A stretch of DNA of 64,000 nucleotides, from contig CAVZRV010000030.1 of NCBI GenBank assembly GCA_963777605.1, forward strand, positions 393,683 to 457,682. Direction: 5' to 3'. The translations under genes were made by a program, and so were the position numbers. The notes beneath the pieces are model-generated. The model saw only the letters and a list, made by a program, of their open reading frames with translations, was not told the origin of the DNA and ran no database searches. The DNA is from an uncultured Acidobacteriota bacterium (GTDB lineage Bacteria > Acidobacteriota > UBA6911 > RPQK01 > JAPXNP01). Below, piece after piece: positions 37,261 to 62,564 of the stretch (positions are counted from its first letter, which is position 1; each line of letters opens with the position of its first letter).

Positions 37261-39257
37261 CTAACAACTCCGGCGAAGTTGATGGCCGCGGATTTCGAGT
37301 CCTTTTAACTCCAGGATCTGCTCCCAAAGGGCTTTGTCTGGACCGTAATCCTCGAACTCGAGCAGTCCCGCCTTCTTCTCGGCAGCGGTGAGCTTGGAAA
37401 AGAGCTTGTGTTTCGGGTGATCCGATGACAGGTAGGCGTCCTTCTCGTAGAGGAGCTGCACCCGCTCCTGTGTCGAGTAGTCAAAGACCTCTACCTCTTG
37501 GGTCCTCAGCAGGATCTTGATCCGGAGCCTCAGTTCCGGGTGGGCTTTCTTCCAGAAGTCGTCATAGAACATTAGAGAGAGCTTCCCCGTTCCCTTGTGG
37601 ACCTTGATCAAGTCGGCCTCCTCAACCCCGCCGTAGAGGATCGATGCGCAGCCGACGTAAACGCGCAGCAGCGCCGGCAGTTGAGGCAAGTAGGAACTGT
37701 GGAACTGGAGGAACTCGGCGTCGTTCTTACCGAACAGCACTTCCGCGCAGGCCTCCTCGATCCGTTCCGGATTGGCCGCCTTCAGCAGAGTCTGGTAAGC
37801 CTCTTGCTCCAGATGGAGTAGTTCCCAAAAATCGCCTTGATGTCATATTGCAGCGACTCGGGAAGCATCGTGAACGGGATCCGTTTCTTGAAGTGGGCCA
37901 TGCAGAAATAGACCAGTAGGTCTTCGGCCCGCCGATTCCGGGACTCCTCCAAAGCTTCCAGGTCGAACTTCTCGCCAAGGATTTGCAGCGCCTTCGGCAG
38001 GGAGCCAGCCGCTCGACGGATCTCGTCAAAATGTTCGAATTCGCTCTTTCGTGGGACCCGCCCAACTCAAGACAGGTTTGCCAGAAACTATCGAACAGTC
38101 CCTGATGCTTCTGATACCGGGTCAGCTTCGGGAACGAAAACGGCTTCTTTCCGTTCGCGGGCAGCTGAGCTCCTTCCAGTCGATCTTTCGCTGAACGGAC
38201 CGTGCGATGAACTCGTGCTTGAGGCTGTCACTCTTGAAGACGTAGAAGATACCCAAACTGACGGAGATCGCCTCCTCACCGAGCGTGCTCTCCAAGTAAC
38301 GCTGCAGCTCGTCCTGAGCAAAGTACTTCTGAAAGGTGTTCCTGGAGGTCAGGATGCCGTCCCCAAACGGCCGAAAATCACCGTTTCGGGCGGCGCTGTC
38401 GTGCATGACGCTGACGACCAAGAGCTCCTTTGCCAACTTCCACGCATCGCGCAAGGTTTGCGATCGCTCTTTCGGGTCCTCAATGATGTTGAGGACAAAA
38501 CCGAGATTGACGATCTCCGCTTCCTGACGGGGTTCGTCCGGGGCGTAATAAGGATCCCAGCCGGAGGCCTCAAACCCTGCTTTCCTCAGAGCGCGGACAT
38601 CGTCACCCTGACCGCATCCGTAGTCGAAAAGACGTTTCCCGTCCAAGAGCCCGTGCGACAGCAATGCCTTCACCGGCCGCGAGGGCTCATATCGAACAAT
38701 CGCCGTCCGATGGCGTGCGACACCTGTACGCCCGGCATCACGACCCGGCTCGGCTCCATCGTCTTCAATAAGCTGATGCCCCTCAATCCGAAGCCGCATC
38801 CGCTTGAAAAGCCGCTCCCACTCCCGCCGAAATCCGATCTTGCTGGGGTACTCAAACAGCCCGGCCTCCTCCTCGGCTTGGGTCAATTTTCGAAACGTCT
38901 CATAGAGGGGATAGTCCGTCCCCACAAGCGTCTCTTTGCGATGGAGGATCGGCGGATTATGGGACTCTGAGAAATGAGTCAGCTCACTGCTGGCCCGTTT
39001 CCAAATCCACAAGAATCGAACGGACAAGCGGCGGATGTCTCGGTGTCGAAGGTAGGATAGTAGAGGTAAGAGATCCGATCGAGCGATCGAGGAATCTTGA
39101 CAACGTTCGCGCCAGGAGTGTCCGGCCAGTTAGCGAGAACCGAGTCTCTGAGGGGAAGCGGGAGACTTTCGACGGTTCCGACGTGAAAGTAAATTGCGTC
39201 GCCAACCAGTTTCCCAATACCGATTTCAGAAAAGTTCACTGCTCTCTTCGGAGTCAT
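37261..39257 (-). CDS. DNA phosphorothioation-associated putative SAM methyltransferase (frameshifted)
   Basis: GKLV.DA.Y.H, NPPILHRKE, RHRTAI.R...S.P, FDYGCG.GDD, GWDPYY, VNLGFVLN.IED..ER, TFQKYF and ADLIK.H motifs. Confidence 0.85.
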
Positions 39258-39391
39258 CCTACCGACAATCAGAATAACCGGATTAGCTGGTCAATTCTGC
39301 AATGAGTCTGCCTCTGAGATCATGGCAATGGCCTGGGTGTGGGAGAGCCGGCAGAAACGCCCCCATGAGAACGGCGACGAGTATGTCGGTT

Positions 39392-42300
39392 CTATGGGGG
39401 AAGTTCTGAAGCCAACTTCAGGAATCTTCTCTTCGCGTTGGGCGGCAACCCCTGGAAACGTTCAAGAAGCCACTCCACCTCCAACGCTTGAAGTTGATTG
39501 GAAATGCTGTTTTTGACCTTCTCGAGGCGCGCGCGGTGCGGGTCGGTCAGCCACGCTGGGGGGCGCTGCGCCTTCTCATAAAGGCGATTGGCTTCCGCCA
39601 CTTCGAGTTCTACGTCCTTCGCCGACTCGGCCTCAACCTGCTCAATCCAGGATTGGCTTTTGTCCTTACGGCTCCTTTCCTCCACCGCAGCAAACGTTGT
39701 CACCGTCTCGTCTGGTGCCCACGGCAGCTCGCCGTCAGCAAAATCCTCGACCGCAGCCTTCGCCAAGCGCTTTGAAAGCGATTCAAACTCAACCCAAGTC
39801 AGGCTCTCGCTTGCCAATTCCGCAGCAGCATGACTGAAACTATTGAGAGCACGCCGCATCAGGCGGAGATCCTCCAAATCGGATTCAGACCCCTCAAAAA
39901 CTCGGATAAGGTCATCGATCTCATCGGATAGGGTCTGGATATCTTCTGGACTCTTAATGGATTGTTTCCAAAGCTTCTGGGCCCTCTTCAGCATCTCAGA
40001 CTCCGTCGCTGACAGCTGAGACTGGAACTTGGATAATGCTTCGCGTGCTGTCACCACCTCCGGAAGATCTATTCGCCTGGCCATTCCCAAGACTTTGCCG
40101 GATAGGCTCTTGACCATTTCTCGGTAGCGCCTTATCTCCGTGATTCGAGTGATTCGGCTGACGGCTCCCTGCTGATCGAGCAACATCTGGACTTGTCTTA
40201 GGAGGTCGTGGGCGTCAGCCGCCGTTTGAGCGTTCTTGATCAAGAAATCAACACGCTTCTCCAGAAGTACCAGCTGGTCAGGAAGCTCCAAGGCTTTTAG
40301 GTTTCTACCGGTCCGATCGAGCATCTTGTGTTTGAACTCGCCAATTTGGTCAATTCCTTCTCCTTTCGGCCGTTGTCTGCTCAGCCACTCCGGAAAGGCC
40401 AAGATGATCGTTTGCCGCGCACGCAGAATCTGCGGCTCGAGTTTGTCGATCTGACCCTCGTCCCAACTTGAACCCTCATTGGCCATCCGGTTTCTGAGCT
40501 CAGCAAGTTGAGCCCCACCCCAAATTATCAGCCCGACATCTCCCCGCGTCTGCCCAGCTTCGATCTTCTCCAGGGCGGCACTGTGCTGAGCCTCGTTCTG
40601 CTCTAAGCGTTCACAAGCTTTCCTCGCGACCTGCTCGAGCGTCACGAGCCGATAGCCTAAGGAAGGCGGCACCGGTCGGCGGCGTTTCAACTGGTCGGCT
40701 TTGTTCAGGAATTGCTCCTGTTCCAAATATGTCTCCGTTTCCTCCCAAGCCTCAATCAGCTCTTCCCACTCGGAACTCCCCTCGCCCAGAAACACCAGCT
40801 CGTCTTGAGAGATGGCATCCAAATCGAGAAACTTTCCGCGGAACGGACTTGTCTGAAGCCACTCACTGACCGACAGCTGTCTGCCGCCCCTTGCCACCAA
40901 CAACTTCTCCACCCGGGGTGCTACGTAGGAAGAGAGAAGTAGGCCTGCAGATGCGAGGTTCGCACCAAAGGGCGGGTTGCACACTTCTCTCAATGCACTA
41001 GAAATTCCGAGGCGTTGTTCGCCAGTCTTGAGGGCATGATCCCACAATTGATAAGCCGCGCGAGCTCGATCCAACACCGGTTTGTTCGCGACATTCCCGT
41101 CGCGGGTGAAAATCCCCCAGGCGTCCTTCAGGACTGAAACAGCGCGATTCTTTACCTTCACAGGCTTGGCCAGGACGACATCGTAGTCGAGCTTGCCCTG
41201 AAAAAGCTCGGTCGTTAGTTGTAAACAGGAATCTGCCGCATTACCACGGGCGGTCGCGAACCCATCAAATGGAAACGGGATGGGCTTCTTGTAGATCGCT
41301 TCGAACACGCTCGTCGCCATCTGGGCCAGCCGGCCGCCCCCTGCATCGTCGCCTAATGGAGAAATGTATTGACGTTTTCTCAACTGGCTGTCGACGTGGC
41401 TGACCAGTAGCTCTCGGTCTTTCATCTTTTGAGCGTCAACCAGATTTCCGAAACGCGCCTTTTGCTCTTCCGTCAACGAATCTCTGAGTACCTCAAGTTG
41501 GGCAAGAAGATCCCCAATCTTGCCGTCTTCATCGAAGATCATCACGATGAAGACCGGAAATCGTGTTCCGTTACGTCCACTGACAAGCGATTTTAGGCTC
41601 TTCCGAGCGGCTGCCGTCGCCGTCTCCGGGTTGCGACTCCGTTCAACTAAGCAGAAAATGGCCGTCCCTCGAGGCTCATCCACAGCAACTGCGTTCTTCC
41701 ATCGGTCCAATGCGAACGCGAGGTTTGTCGCCAAGTTGTCCAGGGTTGTGGTGACCGCCTGATAGCGCCACTCGCGGGTGGTAACTTGGTACTTCTCGGA
41801 GAAGTCGCAATCAAGGTCTCGTAAAGATTCACAGTAGTCTTGCACCCGAAGGGCAAAAAGTCCCACCTTGCTCTGCTCGTCGAAGCTGCCGGCCACCCTC
41901 TGATTGAGGAACGCCAGAAACTGTGATCGCGGAACCGCGTCGCCTATGATTTCAAACTTTTTGAGGGCATGATCCCACTCCAGTACGTTGAACTCCTCTT
42001 CGAGGGTTTGGATTGCCTGTTGGGCCTCAGCCGTGCTCAATCCAGCAAACTCCCCAAGCGTCCGAACCACACCCTCCCTGTTTATTGCACGAAGGCCGAG
42101 TTTGGATGTGAGAACGACCGCCCGAAGAATTCGTCGGCCTTCGCGGGATAGCTGCGCCCCATGACGAGCTTCAACTGAGGAATAGGCATGCGCCACCGAT
42201 CCTTCTTGACCGGTTTCCTCTGAGGAAAGCAACTCCTGTTTCAGGTCCTCTGACCAGAGATCGACCGGGACGAGACTCCAGTCTTCCTCTCCGTCAAGCT

Positions 42301-43678
42301 CCACGCCACTATAGTGCTCAAATACCGTCGAAAGCAGCGCCAGAGCCGAACGCTCCTGCAAGTGCTTCCCCCCCGTTGAAAGATGAAAAAGCAACCAGGT
42401 CGAATAACCAGATAGGGGCCAACATCCTTTGCGGACGACCTTGTGAAAACGCTCAGGGTCACTCCAAAGGGCATAATTCTCTGATTGCGGGAACGACAGG
42501 TGAAGATTCGCCAGGATACTCTTCGATTTTGCTTTTGCCTGTGGAGAATCGAATAGCCTCTCGAGCCGCTCGGGATCGCGCTTTTCGATCAGGTGGGCAA
42601 TCAGAGTCTCAAGATTAATCGACAGATAAGAACGGCTCGAGGACTGAAACCGTGTCACATAGCGCAATATCTCGTTCCGGTATTCTGGGGCCACCCGCTG
42701 CACGTATGCGTTCAGCTCGAATTGGATAAATCCAACGAAAGTCACCGTTTCACTATGTGATTGGATCCCTTCAAATAAGTCCTGTAAGACACCACTGCCG
42801 GCAATCTGGCTACGATTCGTCGCGAACTCGGTGTAACGGCCAAATTCATCAAACAAGAACACGAGGCGACTGAATGGTTTCCCCTCTCCACAGTAGAGCC
42901 GAGCGACCGTCTCAATAATGTCTTTCAGGGACTCTCCTCCGAGAACCCTAATTGGCATCCCCCGGCGCTGGAAGAACTCATGCACCTCCTGGTAGGTTGT
43001 TTCGTCTTGGCGATCCAGAGCACCAAGCAGTTCTTCAATCGTGTCCGAGCTACACTCTTGAAGCAAGTCGCCGAGGACTTTGTCGTTACTCAGTCGAACC
43101 AGGTTCAGTGCCTGCATGAATCGAGGTCGGAGTTCATCGAGCGGCTTCGTGTCCAGGTCATTCGCCCTTAATTGAGCGTGAGTCTGGCGCGACACTTCGG
43201 CATTCAAGTCAAAGTTGCGCATCCCATTAAGTGCAACAACCAGACAGGGGCGCGACTCCGTAGCCAGGAGAGACCGGACTTCTCTGCCGATTGCCAGGTC
43301 AGCGGCATCGAGACTTTTCAGCGCGAATTCAGCAGGTTCCGAAAGAGGATCACTGAGCAGATGAGCCAAGGTCACCGCGAGATGAGACTTGCCGGTTCCA
43401 TAGCCGGCGATCGCCAAAGTAAAGGGGGCATCTTCTAGCCCAAAACAGCGTCTCAGAATTGCGCGGGTGAAACTTGCCGTATCTTGAAGCCGATGCCCAT
43501 GTGACTCACCGATATCCTCCTGAGAGACGCCGTGATATGAAGGACCGTGAAATACAAACGCCTCCGCCGCTTTCGCAGACTTGTCACGATTTTCAAGAAA
43601 CCAATCAATATTCACGGCACCGTTGAAAAGGCGGTCGCCTCGAAACGTCACCACATCTGAGAGTCGAGTACCCATCAT
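39392..43678 (-). CDS. Large P-loop ATPase (SspC/BrxC-like) with long helical C-terminus
   Basis: Walker A AGYGTGKS, Walker B FLFDEFG.Y.E, C.PL and QERS motifs; follows a DUF4007-like gene. Confidence 0.8.
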   Translation of the reverse strand: MMGTRLSDVVTFRGDRLFNGAVNIDWFLENRDKSAKAAEAFVFHGPSYHGVSQEDIGESHGHRLQDTASFTRAILRRCFGLEDAPFTLAIAGYGTGKSHLAVTLAHLLSDPLSEPAEFALKSLDAADLAIGREVRSLLATESRPCLVVALNGMRNFDLNAEVSRQTHAQLRANDLDTKPLDELRPRFMQALNLVRLSNDKVLGDLLQECSSDTIEELLGALDRQDETTYQEVHEFFQRRGMPIRVLGGESLKDIIETVARLYCGEGKPFSRLVFLFDEFGRYTEFATNRSQIAGSGVLQDLFEGIQSHSETVTFVGFIQFELNAYVQRVAPEYRNEILRYVTRFQSSSRSYLSINLETLIAHLIEKRDPERLERLFDSPQAKAKSKSILANLHLSFPQSENYALWSDPERFHKVVRKGCWPLSGYSTWLLFHLSTGGKHLQERSALALLSTVFEHYSGVELDGEEDWSLVPVDLWSEDLKQELLSSEETGQEGSVAHAYSSVEARHGAQLSREGRRILRAVVLTSKLGLRAINREGVVRTLGEFAGLSTAEAQQAIQTLEEEFNVLEWDHALKKFEIIGDAVPRSQFLAFLNQRVAGSFDEQSKVGLFALRVQDYCESLRDLDCDFSEKYQVTTREWRYQAVTTTLDNLATNLAFALDRWKNAVAVDEPRGTAIFCLVERSRNPETATAAARKSLKSLVSGRNGTRFPVFIVMIFDEDGKIGDLLAQLEVLRDSLTEEQKARFGNLVDAQKMKDRELLVSHVDSQLRKRQYISPLGDDAGGGRLAQMATSVFEAIYKKPIPFPFDGFATARGNAADSCLQLTTELFQGKLDYDVVLAKPVKVKNRAVSVLKDAWGIFTRDGNVANKPVLDRARAAYQLWDHALKTGEQRLGISSALREVCNPPFGANLASAGLLLSSYVAPRVEKLLVARGGRQLSVSEWLQTSPFRGKFLDLDAISQDELVFLGEGSSEWEELIEAWEETETYLEQEQFLNKADQLKRRRPVPPSLGYRLVTLEQVARKACERLEQNEAQHSAALEKIEAGQTRGDVGLIIWGGAQLAELRNRMANEGSSWDEGQIDKLEPQILRARQTIILAFPEWLSRQRPKGEGIDQIGEFKHKMLDRTGRNLKALELPDQLVLLEKRVDFLIKNAQTAADAHDLLRQVQMLLDQQGAVSRITRITEIRRYREMVKSLSGKVLGMARRIDLPEVVTAREALSKFQSQLSATESEMLKRAQKLWKQSIKSPEDIQTLSDEIDDLIRVFEGSESDLEDLRLMRRALNSFSHAAAELASESLTWVEFESLSKRLAKAAVEDFADGELPWAPDETVTTFAAVEERSRKDKSQSWIEQVEAESAKDVELEVAEANRLYEKAQRPPAWLTDPHRARLEKVKNSISNQLQALEVEWLLERFQGLPPNAKRRFLKLASELPP

Positions 43679-43685: not shown

Positions 43686-44543
43686 CTAAATCAGTTCGCT
43701 GTAGATCTGTGCCCAGGCTTTCTCAGTCGTAGTCAACGGACGCAGAATCCACGGTTTCATATGCCGGTCCACCTGAATCAACTGGTTCCGCTCCATCAAC
43801 TGTAGGACATCTTGAGATTCGGAGATTCCCCATTTCGGGATAGTTCGCCAGCCTCCTCTTGAATCCAATTCGGTGACCGTGATTTGGTCTTGTCTCGGAA
43901 AATGCAGGTGTACAAGCTCAAGGAGCCAAGCTCCATAAGCTATGGCAAACTCCTCCCTGATTGGCGCAGCGTTCCGTACGATCTCGTCTCCGTCTGACGC
44001 CAAGGCACCGCATCCGAGGAGTGAGGCATCTTCTTCGTACGTTCTGACCAGCGGGCCGATAAGATTGCCCTGTTTGGTCCCGTATGCCATAGCAAGGAGG
44101 TCTTCCAGGTGCTGGCGTTTAAAGCGAGACCCCAGCTCCTGCGCGTGTGCGTGGAAAACCTGGTACCAAACATCGGCTCCCGATTGAACGCTGCACATGT
44201 TCAAATGGACGATCCATTGGGTCAGTGGCTCGCGAAGAAAGGGATCCTCTAGATAGACGATCCGGCCCAGATTCGTAAGTCGTGGGCGTTTCACGGACGA
44301 TGGCTGCGAGTCGAGAAGGTACACGAGCCCCATTCCACGGCAGTAATCGAGTATTGCCGGAACCTTTCCGGTGAATTCACCAGTTGGGATACCAGTCTCC
44401 CTCGAAATCTTCAGATAATCCCCATCATTGTCTCCAGCCGCAAATGAGAGGAGAGCATGGATGTACTGGCGCTCGGGGACGAAAGACTTATGGAAGAACC
44501 TCGGCAACCGGTCGTAGCAAGTGTTCCCTTTAGGCATCGCCAA
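43686..44543 (-). CDS. Divergent DUF4007 (SspB-like) protein
   Basis: FH.SF, TGIP.G...GKV.AI..Y..GMGL, and LT.LG......DPFL....TQW..H motifs. Confidence 0.65.
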   Translation of the reverse strand: MAMPKGNTCYDRLPRFFHKSFVPERQYIHALLSFAAGDNDGDYLKISRETGIPTGEFTGKVPAILDYCRGMGLVYLLDSQPSSVKRPRLTNLGRIVYLEDPFLREPLTQWIVHLNMCSVQSGADVWYQVFHAHAQELGSRFKRQHLEDLLAMAYGTKQGNLIGPLVRTYEEDASLLGCGALASDGDEIVRNAAPIREEFAIAYGAWLLELVHLHFPRQDQITVTELDSRGGWRTIPKWGISESQDVLQLMERNQLIQVDRHMKPWILRPLTTTEKAWAQIYSELI

Positions 44544-47500
44544 AACGCTCCCGTAAGGCGGTGATTTGGATCTTGAACGCCTTATCCTGCAGTTCGCCCG
44601 TACTTTCGTTTAGGCTTGGCCCAAGGGAATAACATTCCCCCTTCTTGAGGCTTGCGAGCCGCTGCTGCCACACATCGAGCTTATCTCCCGTGCTTGTAGC
44701 GGCGATCTCTGCATAGCCTCTCATCTCCGTGTCGGACGGGCGAAAGAAAAGCTTGTGTCCGGCTAGGAATAGACGGTCCCGCTCGTCCTTGTTCAGACTG
44801 CTCATGATCTGGGTTGCAAGGATCAGTGAAAAACCGAATTTGCGCCCTTCCCGCAACAACTGTGCGAGGGGGCTCTCGTCGCGATGATCGAGGTTCTGGA
44901 CCTCATCTAGAACGACTACCTGGGGGGATGCCTGGGTTCCGATGCTTCGATAGAACCAGTAGAGATCAATCAGGGCAAATTCAGTGACCAGCCTTCCGGC
45001 TTCCCTCATAAAGCCCGCTAACTGGATTACATGGCAGTGATGAGTCTGATCTTTGAATAGTCTCTCCCACCCTTCAGGGTCTTCATTTCCAAAAGGGTTC
45101 TGATCGAGGAATGGGATCAACTTGCTGATGACCCCGCCCGCAAATTGCCGCTGAGCCCCCTTTTCCTCTGCGAGTCTCTGCAGCTCAGGGATGAGGTCTT
45201 CCATCGTCAGCCCAGAATCGCCCGATTCCTCCAGTCCATTCTTGATCGCCTGATATAATGCGGACTTCTGCTGATCCCCGAAGTTGTAGACTTCAGAAAA
45301 GACGCCGCTAACCCGCTGGGCCGTCGTAGATGGGTGCTCCGGAAGCGTCACCTCTCCAATCATCTCTGCGCGCTGTCGAAAAGGATTTATGGCCAGAGGT
45401 TCCCGCCGAACAATGTGCTGAACAGGAGAGAGGACATTCTTGAATTCGGCCTCAAGCTGATGGTCCATGAATCCGTTGGTGTAGTCCACTATCAACGAGT
45501 TCTGCCCGAAGCGACCCAGTTCAGAGAGTAGGCATTCAATTGTATAGGTCTTGCCCATCCCTGAAGAACCGAAGATTAGCATGTGGCGGTTGCTCAGGTC
45601 ATGGTGGCCAAACTCCCAATACACCTTACGTGAGCCAGGGACCGACTGACCGAGCAGTATTCGGTCGGGGATTTCGAGGGATTTCGCCACCTCTTCCTTG
45701 GTGTCTTTCTTCCCCACAGCACCAGCCTGTGAGCCTCTTGGGTTGAGATGCGCCACAACAGACGGGTCACTGCCACCCAAGCCTTTCTCCACTCCAGCCG
45801 CCCCGTCACCATCTGGATCGGTCCCGCGGGCAACCTGGACAACGCCAGTTGCCCTAAATGATGCGCAGTTGTCGGTCCAAGGAATGGCATGAACCCCTCC
45901 CTTGCGGCAGAGCAATCGAACGAATTCAGTGCCGCTTGAGACCACGCCAATACCGAACGACTGACCTTCAATGGAATACCTCCAGACGCCAGCTCGCGAG
46001 ATTACCGGCTCATCTTGGTCAGTCCAAAAGGTAACCGCCGTCGCACGCCACTCGATATCAAACTCACCCTCAGCAAGTCGTTCTAGCGCGGAAAGCACTT
46101 GGCTCTGCTCACGCCCGAGAATCACTGCCTTGCTTGCAATCAGCCGGTGAAGCTGGAGCCACCAGTACCTCTGGTCAGGTCGCTCATCTTCGACTTTGGC
46201 CTGATCGGAACGTGGCATGAAGACCGTGGCAAGGTGCCGCAGTCCACATTCAAGTTGTTCCCGCGCCTTGTCCAGATGGACATCAGACATTTGTGCCAGC
46301 TTGCATTCAATCAACCGCAGGTCCAGGTGGAGCCGACCAGACGGGCCAACCCGTGCCGTAAGCCACAGCAAGTCAGGTCTCGTATCCGTTTCCGCGGTGT
46401 CGAACCAATGACGGTAAGCATCCAACGAAACCAACTGATCGCAGAGTGCCTCCCCCTCTAGATTGAGGAGCTTACGCGTCAATGAATAAGCCATGAAATC
46501 TCGAATGTACTCGCCAATCCCGGTCGCCCGAACCAAAGAGAGCCCCGAAAGATTGCGTGACTCCGCCAGCACACTCTTCGCGACCTGCTCATATTCCTCT
46601 GGCATCCATCCGCTGTAGATTTCGCCGATTGCGGCAATGAGTTTGTGCAACACATCGGACAACCGAAACTGTTCGGTCGAAATGGTGTAGTTGGCCTCCC
46701 CGTGCGTGCCCACGCCCGACCCAAACCCTATGATCTCTCGCGATTCCTGCGTGTTTCCGGATTTCTCGGCAAGCAATCTTTCATCGACGTTGGGGTCAAT
46801 GCAGACCACCCATCCGGCTCTTTGGTGGAACGCATCAACGACACACTGCCACGGACCATAGTCGCCGTAGCCTAGAACGACGTGGTGAGACCCTGGCTTG
46901 CCTTCGCGGCTCTTAAGGCGCGACATGACCTCCGCGTGACGCGTCGTGATTCGGAATTGGCGGTTACTTAGAACACGGGCGCGCAGCAAGCGGCGCCCAG
47001 GATCCCGCAAGGAACAGAAGGACTTTTCCAAAATCGGGAACTTCAGGGTGCGCGTCGTGACGTCATAGGGCGCCACAAGCTCGAAGTCGTTGCCCTCGGA
47101 CCCGGCCCGGATGAATCCGTTGAGAATGGCAATATCAACATCCACGCTCTTGTCCACTAGATCAACGAATTGCCGATAATCGTTCTCTGGAGAGACAATA
47201 CGGTGCGCAACGGAGAGACTTGCTTTCCTGTAATGCGCCAACGAACTCTGGGTTTCAGCCGCTTCCCACCGTTCCTTCCATTGGCCGATCCATCGGGCAA
47301 CACTGCTATCGTCGCTCGACTCGGTGAAGACCGTCACAGAGATGGAATACGGCTTGAGACCATCAGCACGCCCCTGGCAAACTCCTGTTAAGAACTCGTC
47401 CACAGCGGCGATTACAGGTTGGATATCCTGGTTTTGATAAATCGCGATGCTGAGACCATCCATGGCGTGCGGGTGAAGTGCACAATATTCTTTAAGCACG

Positions 47501-49789: not shown

Positions 49790-49793
49790 CGGT

Positions 49794-51450: not shown

Positions 51451-54400
51451 CCGTCACCTCCAACCGCCCGTTTCGGACTGCGAATATCTGTCGGCGAAAT
51501 GTGTGGTTGGTGCGCAGCCGTACCAGCATGATGTCGTCGGTTCTCCGTGCCGATGCATGGCGAATCAGTTGTCCTTTGAACTTCTCGAGCCGGTCAACGT
51601 ACGACGCTTGGAGAGCTTGCCCAATCTCCCCACGATTCCTAAACATCACATAATCGAGGAAGGGCAATGAAAGAGGCAGGTCAAGATGGCCGCGACTTGA
51701 AGGACCCTCCAAAACCAGCTCGCGGCGAATTTCTCCGGATTGGGTCGTCCGCTTACGTAATCGAACCTGAAATTCATCTTCGGGATACCGCCCGAGTACC
51801 ACCTGGGCGCTTTGTCTGACATCGTGAGACCGGCGACATAGGGTGACGAATAGGTGTCGGTCCGTTGAGACACCCTCCGGCAATCGCACACCCGTAAAGT
51901 GCTCCTGAAGCACGTGCAGAATCCGTTTGTGGAGTAGGCTGCGCTCCTGAAGGCTCAGAATTTCGCTATCCTGGCTTTGCCACCGAACAAAGTCCAAGAG
52001 CGTGCTGGACCGGAGAAAGGACCGCAGAAATCCGGCTCCATCCTCCCCCCCAAAGTCGTGCAGGAAGAACACGGCCCGCCGGACTTGATCTCTTGACTCA
52101 TTGCCCGAAATTGTGTGGTCTGACCGCAGTCCAGCACCGTATTCTCGGAGAGTCTCGAAATCATCGGGACTTTCTGATGCTCTCAACTGGAAGGTTTGGC
52201 CGCGGCTCTTCATCCAAAAACGCCGTTCCCAATTGGCACAAAGCTGGGAGCCGAAACCTTGTTCGCGGACCGCACGAGCCCCTTCCAGCTGCATGGCCGG
52301 CAGATCGAGAGTCTTGCCGTTATCTCCAAAAAAGCGATTAAAGAACATGAACTCGCTCAAAAGGGGAGGCTTGGCCCTCTCTGACATCCTCACGATGTCG
52401 GGAAAGTCGAGTCCGGCGGTAATCATGTATGCCATGTGACCCGAGAGCTGCCGCAGCGTAAGCCTGGTGCCATACTCGTACATGCGACGGTACGCGAAAA
52501 AGAGCCGCTCGCGGACGACAGGCAAATTCGCCTGGATGAGAGAGACATTTCGGAAGATCGGGCACTTCTCTCGGCAGGAGGCTGAGTTGCAGGCAATCCA
52601 ACGCTCTTTGGCAATCATCCGCTCGAAGATCTGCTGGGCTATCTCGAGATTGTCCATCATCGCAACATTGATGACGACGAAGCTCGTCTCGTGAAACTCC
52701 ATCTCGGCGGGATCCTGAGAACTGATTCTTCCTAGAAGCTCGCTTTCGATCCGTACCCAATCTCCGCCTTTTCTCGTCTCATGCGCCTTGAATGCCTCCA
52801 AAAGTGTTCCGGTGTTGGATACAAGCAGGAACCGAGGACCATCGCTTTCGAGCATCTCGGCCAATAGTTTCGAGGACTCCAAGGAGGTCCACTCGCTGAG
52901 GTCTTTCACAAGGCTGATGCGTTCAAGGTTCTCCCTCGGATCTAAAAAACGGGGGAGAGGCCGATCCGGCTCCAGGCCACTGAGGCGCTTGTAGATCTCA
53001 ATTGCGATAGTCGATTTGCCATCTCCAGCGTGGCCGGTAAGGACCACATGCTTTCTCTTTTCTCCTGTCAGAATACCCTCAATGATTTTGGAGAGAGGAT
53101 GACTTACATGGATGTGGCCGAAGTTGGAATTTCGAGCCTGGAATTCCGCTAGAGCGTTCTCATTTGCCGCACTGCGACTGTGGATGGTGTTCAAATATGA
53201 CACAAAAGGGTTGGGCTCGACCTTGCCCGGCAAGTCGCTGGTCAGGCTCCCTTCCTCATTCGCCTTCACCTTCTCAATTGAGGAGACTACATGAACTTTC
53301 GTCACCGGCTCAGGCAGTATCACTGACTCTGGTTCAGTTAGAGCTCCTTTCAGTGCATCCCTCATTTCCCCGGTTGAACCATAACGACTTGCAGCATCAG
53401 CTGAACATCCTTTCAAGAGCCATGAGACCAGACGCCCAGAGACACCTTGTTCCTCTTGTTTTGGGGTGCCCGGCCTGGCGCCGAGGAGCCACTCGTGTAG
53501 ACTGACTGACAAAGCGAAAAGTTCGCCATCGACGCTGTACTTGCGGTCCTTACCAAGCCGAAGATCAGGAGCAACGTAACCCTCGGTACCTTCGTAAGTG
53601 CCCACCTGAGGATGAGACGCTGCTCCAAAGTCGATCAAGACAAAACGGCCGGCCTGGTCCAACAAGATATTTTCGGGCTTGATGTCGTTGTGAAGGATCG
53701 GCCCTGGGACGTCGTCGTCAAAACTGAGATGAAGGGACTCAACGGCGTCTAAAAGTTGCTCCGCCCCGCGAACGAAGCTTTCGAGATTAGGCCTCACACC
53801 ACCGTCGATTTCGCTACGCAGACTCCGCTCGGAAACCCAATCGAAAGCTATGTAGTACCGCCCATCGCTCCACTGGTTATAGTTGTCCACACGGACTAGA
53901 CTCGGGTGACGAGCGGTTGCAGCATAACGCTGTTCCTCCAGCACTCTTTGCAGAGGCACATCGAGATTAAACAGCTTGAGAGCGACTGTACGTCCCTTGG
54001 GTCCTGCAGCCCGATAGATCTGAGCTTCGGCGCCGAGACCCACGAATTCCTCGACACTGTAAAGTCCGGACTGTTCTCCCTCGTGAAGAACACGGTTAGG
54101 TTCAGTAGGCGTCTTCGGCGGGGCTTCCCCATAGGCTTCCAACATCTCCAAAACGCTGGCAGCGCTCCCAAGCCGATCCGACGGATTCAGGTAAATTAGG
54201 CTTGAAATGAGATCGATCACCCGGCCCGGGATTTTCCCCCGTTTTCGCAACCTCACGATCTGATCGTCCGAAAGGTACCCGGCCGATCGCTCCAAGTCAG
54301 TTGAGCATCCAAAGGGCGGTTGCCCGACAAGCATTTCGTAAAGGATCACGCCTAAGCTAAAAAGGTCGGCTGTTGCCTCGGGCACGGTACCAGTAACGTA

Positions 54401-55978
54401 GATTTCAGGGGCGATGTAGGGCGACCGCTTCAGTCTTGTCGCATCAGGGATTACAGTGACGCGATCCTCTTCAAGTTGGAACGACAAGTCAAAATTCATC
54501 AGTTTTGGCGTGTCGTTCACCATCAGAACATTTTCCGGAGACAGAGCCCGATGTACCACGTATTGGCCGTGAGCAGCCTCCAGTCCCCGGGCTAAACCAG
54601 TAGCGATTGCAACAGCTTTCTTCGGAGCCATTCTTTTCTTTGCTTGACGCAACGACTGGAGCAAGTCTCGCAGTGTCCCCGTTTCGGACCAGTCACTCCC
54701 TTCCACCAGATAGTTGTTTTCGTTGGGAATATCCCAGACCTTGAGGATGTTTGGGTGGTCCCCGATCTTCTCCACCGCATTCAGGGTTGCGGTCGCCCTC
54801 TCCCTTGCTTCGTGGTCGCCCAGAGTAAGGAAGAAAATGCGCAGCCGGCTCAACCTGCGGTGTCGGACGTCTGTTCGTCGTGCGACTACCTCGGCACGAT
54901 CATCATATTGGTAGAGGCGTTCGACAATTTCATATCCCGGAAATATGAAGTCTTTCGGACGACCCGGGCTACGCAGTTTCTGAACGTAAGAAGCAAACGC
55001 CTTGCATTGGTTCTCTGAGAGTTCTAACGTCTTCAGCTTTCGCTGATTCTTAAGATACTGGAGGAAACGGTCGATGCTCTCAAATGTCGGATTTTGGCTT
55101 TCCGTCTTCGGTATAGCCCCGCCACTTACCTGGACTTCAGGGTTGGTAAATACCACAACCGATTCAAAATAGACCGAAGGAAAACTTGGAAATTTCCGCT
55201 CGTAAAGTCCCCTTAATAGTTTGGCTTTGAAGTTATTACCTCGGTGTGGGTCAACTTTGAAGAACGAGCTATTCTGTACCCAGGAGTTAGGACGTACTTC
55301 GATGTTCCCGCTCCAGTGTTTCAACTCGATTACATACACACCAAAGCGGGCAACCAGTACGAGGTCGGCTTCGAAATAGCGGTTCGACTGATGGTCGTAC
55401 AGATCGAGATTGCTGAGAATCTCACCGAGCTTATGGGCTTCGACATACCGACCTATCGAGCCTATTGCCGTCTTTTCGTGAACAAACAGCGAGTAGGGCG
55501 CTAGATCCTCACTAACGCCATCGCTCTCGGCTCGGTCACCTGCACCTTCTGCCAAGAGTTCCTCCAATCTTTCCTTGATCATCTGGTTCATTACGGAGTC
55601 ACGCATGAATTCTAGAACTGCCTCATCGAGCTCGGCATATGCAACAAGGCGCTTCAAGTCCCCAGGCGAACCAACAGTCCCTGCCGCTTGCAAGGCCTTT
55701 TCCTGATTGGGACTTGGGACAAGACGCCAGAAGCCGTGACGGGAGAGATGAAAGAACGGCGCCCACGGCCTGTCTCTGTCCCTTTCTCCAGCATGTTGCC
55801 GAAAAAGCCGAGAAAAGGTCTGCTGGAACGCCACGTCGTAATAAACATGCTGGTCCTGGATACTCCTCTCCCGCACCATCTTAAGAACGGAGAGAAGCAG
55901 GATGTGCTTGTGTGGCTTGAAGCCTCTCCCAGCCGGGCTCAGCTCACATAACCCTTCGAGAAACTCCTCAAACGTCAT
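51443..55978 (-). CDS. SBD-like + NERD nuclease + pseudokinase + Ser/Thr kinase + DptF/SspF-like P-loop fusion protein
   Basis: KPHKHILLL...PFFHL...FWRL; EADLVL...VIELKHW.G; HRALSPEN/NFD; VALK, HNDIKPEN/DFG; VLTGHAGDGKS. Confidence 0.85.
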   Translation of the reverse strand: MTFEEFLEGLCELSPAGRGFKPHKHILLLSVLKMVRERSIQDQHVYYDVAFQQTFSRLFRQHAGERDRDRPWAPFFHLSRHGFWRLVPSPNQEKALQAAGTVGSPGDLKRLVAYAELDEAVLEFMRDSVMNQMIKERLEELLAEGAGDRAESDGVSEDLAPYSLFVHEKTAIGSIGRYVEAHKLGEILSNLDLYDHQSNRYFEADLVLVARFGVYVIELKHWSGNIEVRPNSWVQNSSFFKVDPHRGNNFKAKLLRGLYERKFPSFPSVYFESVVVFTNPEVQVSGGAIPKTESQNPTFESIDRFLQYLKNQRKLKTLELSENQCKAFASYVQKLRSPGRPKDFIFPGYEIVERLYQYDDRAEVVARRTDVRHRRLSRLRIFFLTLGDHEARERATATLNAVEKIGDHPNILKVWDIPNENNYLVEGSDWSETGTLRDLLQSLRQAKKRMAPKKAVAIATGLARGLEAAHGQYVVHRALSPENVLMVNDTPKLMNFDLSFQLEEDRVTVIPDATRLKRSPYIAPEIYVTGTVPEATADLFSLGVILYEMLVGQPPFGCSTDLERSAGYLSDDQIVRLRKRGKIPGRVIDLISSLIYLNPSDRLGSAASVLEMLEAYGEAPPKTPTEPNRVLHEGEQSGLYSVEEFVGLGAEAQIYRAAGPKGRTVALKLFNLDVPLQRVLEEQRYAATARHPSLVRVDNYNQWSDGRYYIAFDWVSERSLRSEIDGGVRPNLESFVRGAEQLLDAVESLHLSFDDDVPGPILHNDIKPENILLDQAGRFVLIDFGAASHPQVGTYEGTEGYVAPDLRLGKDRKYSVDGELFALSVSLHEWLLGARPGTPKQEEQGVSGRLVSWLLKGCSADAASRYGSTGEMRDALKGALTEPESVILPEPVTKVHVVSSIEKVKANEEGSLTSDLPGKVEPNPFVSYLNTIHSRSAANENALAEFQARNSNFGHIHVSHPLSKIIEGILTGEKRKHVVLTGHAGDGKSTIAIEIYKRLSGLEPDRPLPRFLDPRENLERISLVKDLSEWTSLESSKLLAEMLESDGPRFLLVSNTGTLLEAFKAHETRKGGDWVRIESELLGRISSQDPAEMEFHETSFVVINVAMMDNLEIAQQIFERMIAKERWIACNSASCREKCPIFRNVSLIQANLPVVRERLFFAYRRMYEYGTRLTLRQLSGHMAYMITAGLDFPDIVRMSERAKPPLLSEFMFFNRFFGDNGKTLDLPAMQLEGARAVREQGFGSQLCANWERRFWMKSRGQTFQLRASESPDDFETLREYGAGLRSDHTISGNESRDQVRRAVFFLHDFGGEDGAGFLRSFLRSSTLLDFVRWQSQDSEILSLQERSLLHKRILHVLQEHFTGVRLPEGVSTDRHLFVTLCRRSHDVRQSAQVVLGRYPEDEFQVRLRKRTTQSGEIRRELVLEGPSSRGHLDLPLSLPFLDYVMFRNRGEIGQALQASYVDRLEKFKGQLIRHASARRTDDIMLVRLRTNHTFRRQIFAVRNGRLEVTDA

Positions 55979-57167
55979 TTCCCACCCCCCGCAATCTTAG
56001 AGGGTGTCTTACCAGACAATTCCTCTCGCACAGAGTAAACGCACTCTGAAATACGCTTTACGGCCGTTTCAACTTCATCCCGTGTCGAGTACCTGCCAAG
56101 CGAAATACGGACCGCACATCGAGCAAGATCACGAGAGTATCCACAAGCCAACAAGACATGAGATGGGGATACAGTCCCGGAAGTACAAGCTGATCCACTG
56201 CTCATACAAAGATCCGGAGATCGGGCTAGAAGGACATCTGCTGGGACCCCGGGGAATATGACGCATGATGTCCCGGGCAGCCGCGGAGACCGGTCGCCGG
56301 CCACCAACACATTTGGTACCTTGTAACGCAATTCCTCTTCGAACCGGTCGCGAAGTGCGCTTACCCTATCTGCATCTTCCTTAATCAGCCTCTGCGCAAG
56401 CCTGCAAGCTTGCCCGAAACCCACGATCCCCGGAACGTTCAATGTGCCAGAACGCAACCCGAATTCCTGCCCCCCCCTTTAAGAATCGGTTCTAAGAGTT
56501 GTCGAGTTCTCCTTCCGCTGATGTAGCAAGCACCGACACCCTTCGGCCCATATACCTTATGCGCACTGACAGAAGCAAAATCCACTCTCAGTTCCTCGAG
56601 CGCCATTGGCACTTTGCCCAGTAGTTGACTTGCATCACAATGCACAAGTGCGCCCCGATTCTTGGCAATTTCAACAACACTCTCGAGAGGCTGAATCACT
56701 CCCGACTCATTATTAGCGCCCTGTAAAGACACTATCAGAGTGTCATTGGTTATAAGTCTCCTTGCCTCCTCCAAATCAACAATCCCAGATTCTTCGAGTG
56801 GCAGGTGACAAACATCAACCCCTTTCTCCAAGAGTAATTCGGACGGCTCCAGAACAGACTTGTGCTCACCTGCTCCAACGGCGACTCGAGATCTCGGACT
56901 GGACTTCCCTGCAATCAAACCCAGAAGAACTGAACAATTTGATTCCGTAGCCCCGCTCGTAAATATGAGATTCTCTGGAGACACTCCCAAAACTTCTCCA
57001 ATATCAACTCGGGCTCTTTCGACGGCCTGTGCTGCGGAGCAACCTAGAATATGAGGGCTCGAGGGATTGGCAAAATTGCCACCGAAAAACGGAAGCATGG
57101 CGTCGACAACTTCTGACGCACATGGCGTAGTTGCATTGTAATCGAGGTAGATCGGAGTACGACTCAT
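55975..57167 (-). CDS. Cysteine desulfurase (IscS/DndA/SspA-like), split at a C-homopolymer near 56470
   Basis: IYLDYNATT, NPSS.H, FTSGATES, NNE.G.IQP, HCDA.Q, SAHK.YGPKG.G, RSGT.NVP and SSGSAC motifs. Confidence 0.93.
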
Positions 57168-58021
57168 AAATGGCAGATCAAGCATCCCGACGTAGCATCC
57201 GAGTTCTCTTCACTGAAAACCTCACTCAACAAAAGCTCCGGCTTCCGACCTTCGATCCGTTTCCTTTTCTCTTCGAAATCTCGCTTTATCTGTGCGACAC
57301 GTTCCGGTCTAGACAATTCCGCCAGGCTTTCTCCTTGAATCCAAGTGTATCGCTCTCCGGTCAGCGGGTCTTCTCGCTCGTACTTCATTGCCTCCTGAAA
57401 AAGATCTGGGTGTGTTTCAAGAAGTCCCACCCATTCGCGACGCTGCTGGAAGAAGCAGAAGAAGCACCCAGATCGCGATCGCCAATTGTAGTATCTTGGC
57501 AGACCCAGTGGATTTCCACCGACATAGGTATTATTCAAGATATCAATGACATCTTGACGCCTGATTCCATCTTCCACAAAGGGGTGCTTGGCGACTATAT
57601 TGGGTTTGGTCGAAATATACTTTTTACGATGAAACTCGTCCGCTCGTATGCCGACATAGCTAATAACACTTTCATCTCCAATGTATTGTTCATAGGGTTT
57701 TATCTTCAAATATTCCGTGCACCACCGGATTTGAGGAGAGGGAAGAAATCCGCGGCGAATCTTTAGTAAGTCGTCGAACCCGAATCCTTCACTCCGAAGT
57801 CTGACTATCTTCTTATCGAGATAGACTTCAAGTCGATCCAGGTAATCGTAGGTTTCAGACAACTCTTTGTCCGTGTCACAAAAGACATATTCCATCTCAG
57901 GAACACGGCCCCTCATATAAATAGCGAGAGCGGCACTATCCTTGCCACCAGACAAAGCTAAAATATGGCGGGTCTCCCCTTTTGACTTGTTCACTCTTGG
58001 TCTGTCCTTCCCTGGCTGCAA
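57164..58021 (-). CDS. PAPS reductase-family protein (SspD/DndC-like)
   Basis: PP-loop SGGKDS, RWCT..LK..P, GIRADE, RSGC..C and C-terminal CLIC. Confidence 0.9.
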   Translation of the reverse strand: MQPGKDRPRVNKSKGETRHILALSGGKDSAALAIYMRGRVPEMEYVFCDTDKELSETYDYLDRLEVYLDKKIVRLRSEGFGFDDLLKIRRGFLPSPQIRWCTEYLKIKPYEQYIGDESVISYVGIRADEFHRKKYISTKPNIVAKHPFVEDGIRRQDVIDILNNTYVGGNPLGLPRYYNWRSRSGCFFCFFQQRREWVGLLETHPDLFQEAMKYEREDPLTGERYTWIQGESLAELSRPERVAQIKRDFEEKRKRIEGRKPELLLSEVFSEENSDATSGCLICHL

Positions 58022-61000: not shown

Positions 61001-61427
61001 GCCGAGAGAAGCCCTTCGACGATGCAGTCCGGGGCCGGGGCGCGCCGCGCCGTCAACAGCACCGGAAGAAAGCCTCTCCACCGTTTTCGCACGGCTGGAA
61101 ATGGCGAGACAGCTGAGAGTCAATCGACGCCAGATGTTGGCGAGCCCTTCGCCCCATCTCATCTCTTGAGCACAGGAGCCGAGACAAGAAAACCGCAAAA
61201 GCCGATTTGCCGCCGCCATAAGGGCCTGTGATCGTCCAGGCGCGGGAGGTGGACTTCGATTCGAGGCTTTCAGACACTCGAGTCAGGGCCTGCAAGACCG
61301 TGTCGGTCAGTATGTAGTCGCCGTTTTGAGTGGAGCCACTGAAGTCCTTTTCGACGTTAACGGATCGGCTGAAAGACTTGGCTACCTCCAGATGTTCGCT
61401 GATCATGCTCGCCGGTGCGCTCGTCAC
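58031..61427 (-). CDS. SspC-like large ATPase (several frameshifts)
   Basis: F.RSVN.E.D, Walker A GPYGGGKS, Walker B VVDELGK..E, HQSF..Y, EW.KI.GRF, YPLHP, QNERSLF and PPYG motifs. Confidence 0.85.
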
Positions 61428-62347
61428 GATGCACTCCTCTGGTAGTAGTCGTTCAGGATGTCCATCCCGTCAAATCGGCGCTTTCGATAAATCTGCTTGA
61501 GGCCCGCCGTTTCGTCGAGCATCATCGCCTGCCCAGTCAGTTGCTCCAAGTCTTCCACGTACTCGATCAAGCTGTTCTCATCCAACTTGAAGGCTTGCCC
61601 GGGACTCCCCTCACCGTAAAGGCACTTCTGGATTCCCACCGTCTCGGTTCTTGAGGACTCCCGATCAAAGAACTGCCCCAAGGCAAAGGCAAATACCGGG
61701 GCCGGCAACGATGATTTCGGCCCGATCGCAAAACGGTAGAGTTCACCGTCGGGAGAAGGCTGTATGAGGTCCAGTTCCAGCAACGGGCAATCAAAAGACT
61801 CCTCGGGGCTTGCCGTTTTCTTCCCTTTCTCTCCCCCCGCGTAGGATCGGATCAGGCAATCTACGTCCCTCCCGAGAACGTTCTCACTGACCTTGATCGA
61901 TTCCTTTTTCGCAAAGGATGAAATGAAATTGGTCAACTCCCGCCTCGTGAAATCGGGGCGGTCGAAACGAGAAAACAAGAGGTTCCAGGACGTGCCGAGT
62001 GTTAGGTTCGATACGAGCAACCAATGAATCAGCCAGAGTGAGGCATCGTCCTCGAGAAACGGGTCACAACCACCCTCAAGAAGGAGGCGCCTGCCGATCT
62101 CGGTCACGCGAAGATAGCGTCCGGTGTTGCGCGGAACATCAGGGTCAGGTTCCACCAACTGTGTCACCAGACACCAGTGCCGAATGCTCGACACCATGTT
62201 CTTGCCGACACCCAGCCGGACAAGGGCGTCGTCCTCCGAAAATAGCGTTGAGCACTCGCTGACCCCTCGAACACCCTTCTCAAGCCACCCATACCGAAAA
62301 GAGAAAGTCTGATGTCCCGAGAATTTGTACTTTTGAGTTATGCCCAT
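61424..62347 (-). CDS. DUF4007 family protein (SspB-like)
   Basis: FSGHQTF.FRYGWL.KG, LGVGKNMV.SIRHW, DPFLED.ASLWL.HW and SPG..FKL motifs. Confidence 0.9.
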   Translation of the reverse strand: MGITQKYKFSGHQTFSFRYGWLEKGVRGVSECSTLFSEDDALVRLGVGKNMVSSIRHWCLVTQLVEPDPDVPRNTGRYLRVTEIGRRLLLEGGCDPFLEDDASLWLIHWLLVSNLTLGTSWNLLFSRFDRPDFTRRELTNFISSFAKKESIKVSENVLGRDVDCLIRSYAGGEKGKKTASPEESFDCPLLELDLIQPSPDGELYRFAIGPKSSLPAPVFAFALGQFFDRESSRTETVGIQKCLYGEGSPGQAFKLDENSLIEYVEDLEQLTGQAMMLDETAGLKQIYRKRRFDGMDILNDYYQRSAS

Positions 62348-62351
62348 CCCC

Positions 62352-62564
62352 CTACAATCCTAGTTCATCGTGATTTGGACGCAAGTCGTTAGCATTTGAA
62401 GTCTGCACCCAAAGATCCACTTGAGAGATTCTGAACTTCCACAAGCGGCCCACCTTGTGCGCCGGCATTTCCCTTTGCCGGATCCAACGGTGAATCGTAT
62501 CCGTGCTAACTCCAACATGCTGAGCAATTTCTCCAAGCGAAACCCATGGTTCCTGCAATTGCAT
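62352..62564 (-). CDS. Excisionase-like HTH_17 DNA-binding protein leading the operon
   Basis: W.S..EIA.H.GVS.DTI.RWI....MPAHKVGRLWKF....VD.WV pattern. Confidence 0.85.
   Translation of the reverse strand: MQLQEPWVSLGEIAQHVGVSTDTIHRWIRQREMPAHKVGRLWKFRISQVDLWVQTSNANDLRPNHDELGL

Follow-up and report, generated by a model that had tools for sequence, protein, structure and literature searches.

A predicted Ssp-type phosphorothioation system with a recurrent five-gene F-G-H-B'-C' unit in an uncultured Acidobacteriota bacterium

Do eleven co-directional genes near the end of a contig of an uncultured Acidobacteriota bacterium form a single phosphorothioation (PT) defence system, and if so, is its architecture one that has already been described? 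The stretch of DNA analysed here, which we call the window, is 64,000 nucleotides long (assembly GCA_963777605.1, contig CAVZRV010000030.1, positions 393,683 to 457,682). It is the terminal 64 kb of a 458-kb contig, in an assembly of 6.73 Mb and 53 contigs with a completeness of 96.7% and a contamination of 5.7%. On the minus strand the locus runs from 62564 to 37261, about 25 kb, in the order HTH_17, SspB/DUF4007, SspC, SspD, SspA, a fusion protein termed F, an SspG-like protein (G), an SspH/DptH-like protein (H), a second SspB-like and a second SspC-like protein (B' and C') and a TIGR04096 methyltransferase. Our answer, to which we assign a probability of about 0.75, is that we have here a copy of an Ssp-type PT restriction-modification system that has spread horizontally and is widespread, and in which a predicted SspBCD(A) modification half is combined with a five-gene F-G-H-B'-C' unit. 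Adjacent genes overlap or are separated by 4-22 nt, with the one exception of a 134-nt gap ahead of the methyltransferase. The genes, with lengths in amino acids (aa), are as follows.

62352..62564 (-): HTH_17 (excisionase/MerR-like) DNA-binding protein, 70 aa; Pfam HTH_17 4.5e-12; 4 nt upstream of sspB
61424..62347 (-): SspB (DUF4007), intact, 307 aa; PF13182 3.6e-85; PADLOC SspB 1.6e-88 over the full profile; 64% identity to SspB of locus L004
58031..61427 (-): SspC ATPase in four open reading frame (ORF) pieces; PADLOC SspC PDLC02779; Walker A and B present
57164..58021 (-): SspD (PAPS-reductase-like PP-loop ATP pyrophosphatase), intact, 285 aa; PADLOC SspD 1.8e-107 over the full profile; PF01507 2.9e-9
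55975..57185 (-): SspA cysteine desulfurase in two ORF pieces; PADLOC SspA profile positions 1-230 and 231-374; Aminotran_5 on both
51443..55978 (-): F, intact, 1511 aa; sulfur-binding domain (SBD), NERD, predicted pseudokinase, predicted active Ser/Thr kinase, DndF/SspF P-loop core, C-terminal domain
49794..51450 (-): SspG/DndG-like protein (G); weak PADLOC SspG match, 2e-9; stop codon at 49794-49796
44530..49789 (-): SspH/DptH-like protein (H) with C-terminal HerA/FtsK ATPase; DUF87 1.3e-11; DndH, SspH and DptH matches
43686..44543 (-): B', predicted divergent SspB paralogue, intact, 285 aa; PF13182 2.7e-7 (weak)
39392..43678 (-): C', SspC/BrxC/PglY-like P-loop ATPase, intact, 1428 aa; Walker A and B readable
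37261..39257 (-): TIGR04096 [quoted passage not shown]; TIGR04096 5.6e-93 and 8e-42

The recurrence of this arrangement in other genomes carries the argument. In what follows, G000 denotes the assembly holding the window, and other L and G labels denote fetched loci and genomes of relatives. With F as the query and each species represented by one genome, 79 loci were obtained, of which 66 matched the kinase region only (22-33% identity) and were left out of the counts, and 13 (L001-L013) matched F lengthwise. One of the 13, L008, is a contig of 2.6 kb, hence 12 loci with downstream DNA, and in all 12 of these F is followed by G, H, B' and C' in unchanged order. Each of these genes is one open frame, and lengths vary little (540-613 aa for G, 1744-1791 aa for H and 276-316 aa for B'), the exception being H of L001, which is split by an IS30-like insertion sequence (IS) element whose transposase (HTH_38 and rve) lies at 18940-19941. 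The host labels are Hydrogenedentales, Latescibacterota (two loci), Armatimonadia, Gemmatimonadales, Verrucomicrobia, Atribacteria, Deltaproteobacteria, Desulfobacterium, Desulfobacterales, Muiribacteriota and Syntrophobacteraceae. The same order in 12 of 12 related loci of different phyla places the gene arrangement far beyond chance expectation. SspB-C-D lie immediately upstream in seven of the nine loci with at least 5.5 kb of upstream DNA, and SspA too in four of these seven; in the remaining two, both from Latescibacterota, the Ssp genes are convergent and located just past C'. Three loci begin at a contig edge, and in two of their genomes SspD is on another contig. SspD was not found anywhere in genome G010, where the locus is at a contig edge.

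The reciprocal search, with a C' profile, covered two sets of 400 genomes each, one from the phylum of the window and the other from that of G004. Apart from the window genome, C' homologues were found in three of these 800 genomes (G373, G730 and G704), and all three loci read SspB-C-D(-A)-F-G-H-B'-C'; the profile had no matches in six genomes of the window's own family. All 15 loci, 12 found via F and three via C', thus show the linkage of B'-C' to F-G-H. The original prediction had proposed eleven co-directional genes in the order given above and a PT system of Ssp type with an SspFGH/DndFGH-like restriction half. Each gene was recovered in that order by profile or structure search, profile matches point to the predicted system type, and the recurrence of the gene order argues for one unit rather than a chance neighbourhood. 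The additions that had been proposed, namely a PT reader, a NERD-kinase block, a second SspB/SspC-like pair and a methyltransferase, are all present in the locus, but they are not equal in status: only B'-C' is constant, and the methyltransferase, the SBD and the NERD-kinase block are optional.

What, then, are B' and C'? When a profile of 13 B' sequences was compared by hhalign with a profile of eight SspB sequences, they aligned over 165 columns with 94.7% probability (E 5.9e-8); the same comparison of B' with SspG gave a probability of 0.4% and no alignment. The AlphaFold (AF2) model of B' (predicted local distance difference test score 84.4, predicted template modelling (TM) score 0.85) finds convincing matches in the PDB only in SspB (6lb9/6juf, E 1e-6, TM 0.64), with the next match below TM 0.3. 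Residues 1-750 of C' align with the SspC profile over 568 columns with 97.7% probability (hhalign, E 1.9e-12). PADLOC SspC matches C' at its N-terminus only (1.5e-11), and C' has no Pfam or NCBIfam family match and no PDB relative; its language-model neighbours are DUF6079/BrxC/PglY clusters, which we treat as a lead only. DUF4007 is the counterpart of BrxA, and SspC that of BrxC, in bacteriophage exclusion (BREX) systems (PMC12839542, PMC12914056; the papers cited throughout are represented here by excerpts). The hhalign comparisons and the B' model are consistent with B' and C' being old paralogues of SspB and SspC/BrxC, and the second DUF4007-like gene and second ATPase that had been proposed from the sequence are thus placed as SspB/SspC paralogues. 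Prediction of a complex between C' residues 1-700 and B' gave run scores of 0.01, 0.50 and 0.00, which we do not read as evidence either way on binding.

C' belongs to a large family. A search with C' in public data clustered at 90% identity returned 1223 proteins; the 120 listed measure 1419-1446 aa, lack any Pfam domain and are called "hypothetical" or are nameless, apart from one that is called TPR. At least 18 pairs across the listed relatives of C' and of the F core seem to share contigs, which is a rough sign. A metagenome scan with C' gave three short contigs (1.7-2.8 kb) lacking usable flanks, and a plasmid tblastn search gave one distant match, on a Thermomicrobium roseum megaplasmid.

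To which half of the system the pair belongs is suggested by loci in which the two halves have parted. The proteins of L009 have only 37% (SspB) and 32% (SspC) identity to those of the window, against 68% for F, 65% for G, 72% for H, 53% for B' and 56% for C'. In both L002 and L010 B'-C' is still behind H although the modification genes have been relocated. On the basis of these identities, and of B'-C' staying behind H where the Ssp genes move, we assign the pair to the predicted restriction half. It might instead be supposed that a defence island simply brings two or three independent systems together, SspABCD with an SspFGH-like set being one and a BREX-like remnant, consisting of B'-C' with or without the methyltransferase, the other. 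B'-C' do resemble BrxA/BrxC, the distant C' relative of T. roseum sits with PglZ and BrxL and not with F-G-H, and canonical SspFGH needs no B'-C'-type pair. Foreign or mobile genes are also tolerated between B' and C': in L010 a DDE_Tnp_1 transposase (21988-23064), and in L011 a ParA-like ATPase together with DUF4435 (11792-13313). Such an explanation is nevertheless very improbable. It would have to accommodate an unchanged, tightly spaced gene order at all 15 of the 15 loci over many phyla, three of them found via C', as well as the overlap of B' with the end of H by 14 nt in the window. It is further opposed by the lack of PglZ, BrxL and PglX among the 11 genes scanned, and by L009, where the modification module has been swapped and B'-C' stay in step with F-G-H.

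The paralogy of B' and C' to the modification proteins SspB and SspC also raises the question of whether the pair could be a second writer, which would direct another self-mark (TIGR04096 methylation where present) or widen the site range of PT modification by SspD. The methyltransferase, where present, directly follows C', and Dnd scanning cores can recruit methylases in place of PT enzymes (PMC10853773). However, whole-genome TIGR04096 searches found this gene in just three of 13 genomes (G000, G003 and G009, each time directly after C'), and none was seen in the fetched flanks of the three loci found via C' (G373, G730 and G704). Moreover, no second SspD stands beside B'-C', and the pair travels with F-G-H rather than with SspBCD. 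A second writer is therefore improbable, and we retain the assignment of B'-C' to the predicted restriction half.

The methyltransferase itself scores 312 bits (profile positions 2-193) and 144 bits (positions 324-476) on TIGR04096, for which the cut-off is 150, with the middle of the protein in another frame. In the window copy the N-terminus carries an extra copy of the C-terminal domain. Decay or partial duplication was considered as the source of this extra segment and rejected, because G009 has the same layout, a C-terminal-like domain plus methyltransferase, in a single open frame of 702 aa. We found no literature describing the TIGR04096 family. The HTH_17 protein, which is probably a regulator, is poorly conserved: of seven relatives with an upstream sspB, one (L004) gives a weak tblastn match (4e-6). 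The methyltransferase and the HTH_17 protein are optional additions to the system.

F is the most elaborate component of the unit. Its residues 6-140 match the crystallised sulfur-binding domain SBDHga1 (PDB 8h0l, 7.4e-18), a PT-binding winged helix, and the same region matches NCBIfam NF045808, "phosphorothioated DNA-binding restriction endonuclease" (7e-8). This is followed by NERD at residues 185-278 (Pfam, 1.4e-15) and by two kinase domains (Pkinase, 3.4e-51). The block at 187-750 matches MAD6 (321 bits, 1.4e-95, against a cut-off of 460 bits) and PglW (2e-52 in NCBIfam, 7.5e-51 in PADLOC), and residues 923-1220 match positions 1-292 of the 560 in PADLOC SspF (1.3e-32). We read the catalytic motifs from an alignment of 12 family members. 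The D..ELK motif of NERD is kept in all 12. The first kinase is predicted to be a pseudokinase because the catalytic Asp is missing in 10 of 12 (HR[A/F/S/N], with HRD in L011 and L013 alone), NFD replaces DFG and there is no beta3 Lys. In the second, the VA[LI]K lysine (VALK in the window copy), HNDIKPEN and DFG are present in 12 of 12, as is the DndF Walker A motif GHAGDGK[ST] (GHAGDGKS in the window copy). F hence combines in one polypeptide a winged helix-turn-helix (wHTH), NERD, a predicted inactive kinase, a predicted active kinase and a P-loop DndF core, the architecture described in PMC10853773.

Not all of this is constant within the family. Four of the 12 F proteins (L002, L009, L010 and L011; 1317-1391 aa) begin past the SBD region, so that the SBD is optional. 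F of G373 is a single ORF of 782 aa that matches window F only at residues 5-160 and 881-1511, and F of G730 shows the same pattern; the NERD-kinase block is thus missing in two of the three loci found through C'. In G373 a separate protein of 1132 aa, with AAA_22 and protein-kinase domains, is encoded after C' (L103 5203-8601 (-)), and may supply the kinase function in trans. The same genome has a WYL-WCX regulator ahead of SspB (L104 17407-18387 (-)). The SspF-core part of F found 242 proteins of 831-2645 aa (E <=0.001, among 8000 scored candidates); among the 120 of these that are listed, all have a kinase domain and 112 have NERD. One relative, P0032 (1345 aa), has Aminotran_5 (PF00266) besides its kinase domains, and could be a fusion of SspA with F or else the product of merged gene calls.

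G matches PADLOC SspG at 2e-9, with no single stretch passing alone. H matches PADLOC DndH with its C-terminus (4.9e-60), PADLOC SspH in its middle only (3.2e-17) and DptH in the PDB (7es4, 7e-10). The curated NCBIfam models of DptF, DptG and DptH gave no match at E <=0.01 for F, G or H. By comparison, the modification half is, as judged from full-profile matches, a regular SspBCD(A), here with its own SspA. SspD carries the SGGKDS motif, and the four SspC pieces together span positions 2-101, 100-214, 215-638 and 638-1052 of PDLC02779. In G730, SspC holds an insertion of 1.3 kb (L105 2959-4232).

How does this locus relate to systems already described? Among the closest known systems is SspABCD-SspFGH of Vibrio anguillarum FF-93 and E. 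coli 3234/A (Wang et al., mBio 2021, PMC8092258), in which SspBCD together with either SspA or IscS installs single-strand PT and DNA lacking it is damaged by SspFGH. The locus shares with it the strong SspB, SspC, SspD and SspA matches, followed by an F/G/H set in which one protein has a Walker A motif and H has a C-terminus like that of FtsK. It differs in that the published system has three restriction genes, with no kinase mentioned in the excerpt, whereas here F is a 1511-aa protein with SBD, NERD and two kinase domains, and B'-C' stand behind H. [quoted passage not shown] The same work describes DndH-type proteins as a nuclease with a captured HerA/FtsK motor, a feature that H of the locus would likewise bear (DndH 4.9e-60, DptH 7es4), and a triple winged-helix module shared by DndG and SspB. 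In its excerpt, however, DndFGH variants are treated as a stand-alone three-gene system, without a B'-C'-type pair or a fixed link to SspBCD. The SBD is known to bind the PT sulfur, and 3% of SBD homologues carry a kinase (NAR 2023, PMC10602919). The SBD of F is nearest to SBDHga1, and in Hga too it precedes a nuclease of the PD-(D/E)XK superfamily, to which NERD belongs; Hga, though, is a type IV enzyme with two domains and PT DNA as its target, and F would be a 1511-aa subunit within a PT-writing system.

Parts of the locus recall other defence systems. The head of F matches PglW of BREX type 2/Pgl across NERD, pseudokinase and kinase, C' is BrxC/PglY-like and B' has an SspB/BrxA-type fold. 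Pfam, PADLOC and NCBIfam scans found no PglZ, BrxL, PglX or helicase among the 11 products. The locus is therefore not BREX, as PglZ, BrxL and PglX are absent among its 11 genes, and its self-mark is predicted to be PT, written by SspBCD. The methylation-associated defence system (MADS; mad1-8 of Pseudomonas aeruginosa) marks DNA by N6-methyladenine and not by PT (PMC13662399). NERD and kinases of F score 321 bits on MAD6 and the ATPase of H matches mad8 (5.3e-17), but the MAD6 score is below the cut-off and no MAD model other than mad6 and mad8 matches at E <=0.001, so that the locus is not MADS either.

The nearest parallel to the window's locus is on the T. roseum megaplasmid (NC_011961.1), a BREX type 4-like locus that is a PT/BREX hybrid with two DUF4007/ATPase pairs. 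There, as here, a PT-writing set occurs with a second DUF4007 protein and a large BrxC-like ATPase. The effectors are PglZ and BrxL in T. roseum and F-G-H in the window, and identity to C' is 27% over residues 88-477. The T. roseum locus (L100, NC_011961.1 90215-105778) encodes DUF4007, an 1108-aa hypothetical protein, PAPS reductase, DUF4007, a small hypothetical protein, a 1401-aa hypothetical protein, PglZ, BrxL and cysteine desulfurase; the 1401-aa protein is the only plasmid match of C', and a type III-B CRISPR locus adjoins. The suggestion in the original prediction that the full architecture was undescribed thus stands in part. NERD-kinase-DndF fusions, SBD-kinase fusions and SspABCD-SspFGH are already in print, and what may be new in this type of locus is the obligate B'-C' pair: we found no description in the literature of a constant B'-C' pair behind H or of a fixed union with SspBCD, although supplements may list such neighbourhoods.

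We tentatively propose, at somewhat less than even odds, that F-G-H-B'-C' is a distinct and unnamed five-component PT-sensing restriction machine, in which a BREX-type scanning pair is wired to a DndFGH-type effector, often with a PglW-type NERD-kinase head. In the mechanism that we consider probable for the system, SspBCD(A) would write single-strand PT at a short motif of host DNA. B'-C', as a copy of the writer's own site finder placed in the service of the restriction complex, would load on DNA and scan the same sites, as BrxA-BrxC would in BREX and SspB-SspC in modification. The SBD of F would read PT and keep the complex inactive on self DNA. On PT-free DNA, G, as an SspG/DndG-like DNA binder, and H, as an SspH/DptH-like protein with a HerA/FtsK motor, would engage; the motor would then translocate, and the nuclease of H, with NERD as a co-effector, would nick or cut. 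The active kinase may regulate the complex, as PglW is thought to do, or act as a back-up abortive effector; regulation and back-up killing have both been proposed for kinase/NERD heads by Krishnan et al. (PMC10853773).

How DndFGH and SspFGH distinguish PT-marked self from foreign DNA is poorly understood (PMC12914056), and a PT reader, a predicted active kinase and a retained SspB/SspC paralogue would offer handles on the self/non-self decision and on kinase signalling versus killing. If the proposal is true, the unit would be a natural bridge between BREX and Dnd/Ssp, and the joining of BrxA/BrxC/PglW-like components to Dnd/Ssp effectors in one operon bears on evolution by module exchange. 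The machine would also be common in environmental bacteria (more than 1200 C' clusters, labelled hypothetical) and absent from defence-system catalogues, and a function for the C' family would annotate many genomes.

Is the copy in the window intact? As assembled, five of its genes (SspC, SspA, SspG, SspH and the methyltransferase) are split by frameshifts, which the original prediction overlooked. Mapping by tblastn with intact orthologues (the L004 proteins and the L090 methyltransferase) gave eight or nine shifts: three in SspC, one each in SspA, SspG and SspH, and two certain and one probable in the methyltransferase. Those in SspC lie at about 61095/61077, 60748/60740 and 59455-59376, with L004 SspC aligning in frames -3, -2, -3 and -1. 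The SspA shift (56475/56457, about 56460-56475) is within a run of eight G. In SspG the shift is at about 50033, with residues 1-473 of L004 G in frame -2 and 473-551 in frame -3, and in SspH at 49352/49350, with residues 1-146 of L004 H in frame -1 and 148-1755 in frame -2. The methyltransferase, which matches in its own genome in four pieces, is shifted at about 38100 and 37790 (certain) and at 39039/38973 (probable). The lesions are all frame changes, with no in-frame nonsense codon and no deletion among the eight or nine. Runs of 4-8 identical bases occur at all six inspected sites, those beyond the G8 of sspA being of 4-5 bases, and similarity to the L004 orthologues is equal for genes with and without breaks.

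Other genes of the assembly are broken in the same way. Its only leuS (G000:C29:244372-246696) is broken into three frames or more, one of the junctions falling within a conserved LeuRS motif; this amounts to two or three frameshifts in 2.6 kb, a density above that of the locus. As leuS is essential and single-copy and cannot be a pseudogene, the assembly makes clustered indel errors. Among 16 full-length genes for resistance-nodulation-division transporters (ACR_tran; for example at C31:333392-336369, C11:323774-326804 and C28:231924-235176 in G000), three are split by four shifts, at sites that show only short base runs. Control genes with single open frames in G000 are rpoB (partial), rpoC, dnaE, ileS, a valS-like gene and carB. 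An alternative genetic code was considered and rejected, since the breaks are frame changes and rpoB, rpoC, dnaE, ileS and carB read through under table 11. We also dropped the idea that F, B' and C' had been selectively spared, as the spread of lesions over the 11 genes fits chance (simulated p 0.15). We consider it likely that the frameshifts are assembly errors, in which case the system would be functional.

Several points weigh against these interpretations and have to be set beside them. Frameshifts are roughly fivefold denser in the locus (nine in 25.3 kb) than in the control genes (four in about 57 kb; binomial p 0.005), and orthologous loci have been broken by IS elements, in H (L001) and between B' and C' (L010), so that genuine decay is possible. 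The restriction half would be a distant relative of SspFGH/DndFGH rather than a typical member, with PADLOC SspF, SspG and SspH matches that are partial or weak. A role of B'-C' in restriction is suggested by paralogy and gene linkage only, and since canonical SspFGH works with three genes (PMC8092258) the pair need not be required. In Hga, SBD and PD-(D/E)XK form a PT-dependent cutter (PMC10602919), and the SBD of F could likewise target PT DNA rather than protect it, its role then being the opposite one of guiding NERD to PT DNA. PT modification, its target motif and defence at this locus are all predictions, made from the genes alone.

The first two of these points would be explained if the copy were genuinely dead, part of a decaying defence island in which real frameshifts had put five genes out of action, for instance once restriction had become toxic through the loss of modification. 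The position of the locus near a contig end, beside a stretch of low ORF coverage (lowest 1-5%) and a phage-type integrase, would suit such a history. Nevertheless, the essential leuS shows that clustered indel errors reach a higher local density in this assembly. The catalytic motifs of the locus are moreover intact, its lesions include no nonsense codon or deletion and are distributed in a way compatible with chance, and its fragments are as similar to L004 as are the unbroken genes. We therefore regard a dead copy as rather unlikely, and assembly error as the better account of the frameshifts. Gene calls in the window are as such not to be trusted at face value, and pseudogene calls in G000 need read support. 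Elsewhere in this assembly, a second dnaE-like gene (G000:C8:297542-300475), which matches the full polC/dnaE profile, contains two in-frame TGA codons.

The surroundings of the locus hold further genes. The phage-type integrase lies at window positions 29075-30352 (+; PF00589, 8e-11). Around it, at about 6000-37000, long-ORF coverage is in the lowest 1-5% of the genome over 30 kb, the probable explanation being a mobile island or else poor assembly of this region; no tRNA genes were found in the window as island borders. Just past the methyltransferase are a nucleoside 2-deoxyribosyltransferase-like ORF (36242-36601 (+), 7e-7) and a weak PD-(D/E)XK nuclease match (34306-35139 (-), 0.009), both possible further defence genes. 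In two related genomes a calcineurin-like phosphoesterase lies downstream of C' (G004) or of the methyltransferase (G003). With it are a Schlafen AlbA_2/HATPase_c_4 protein in G004 (both within L086 2427-5558 (-)) and a 909-aa AAA_23/SMC_N ATPase in G003 (both within L090 899-4899 (-)), and the phosphoesterases and their companions are probably neighbouring defence genes.

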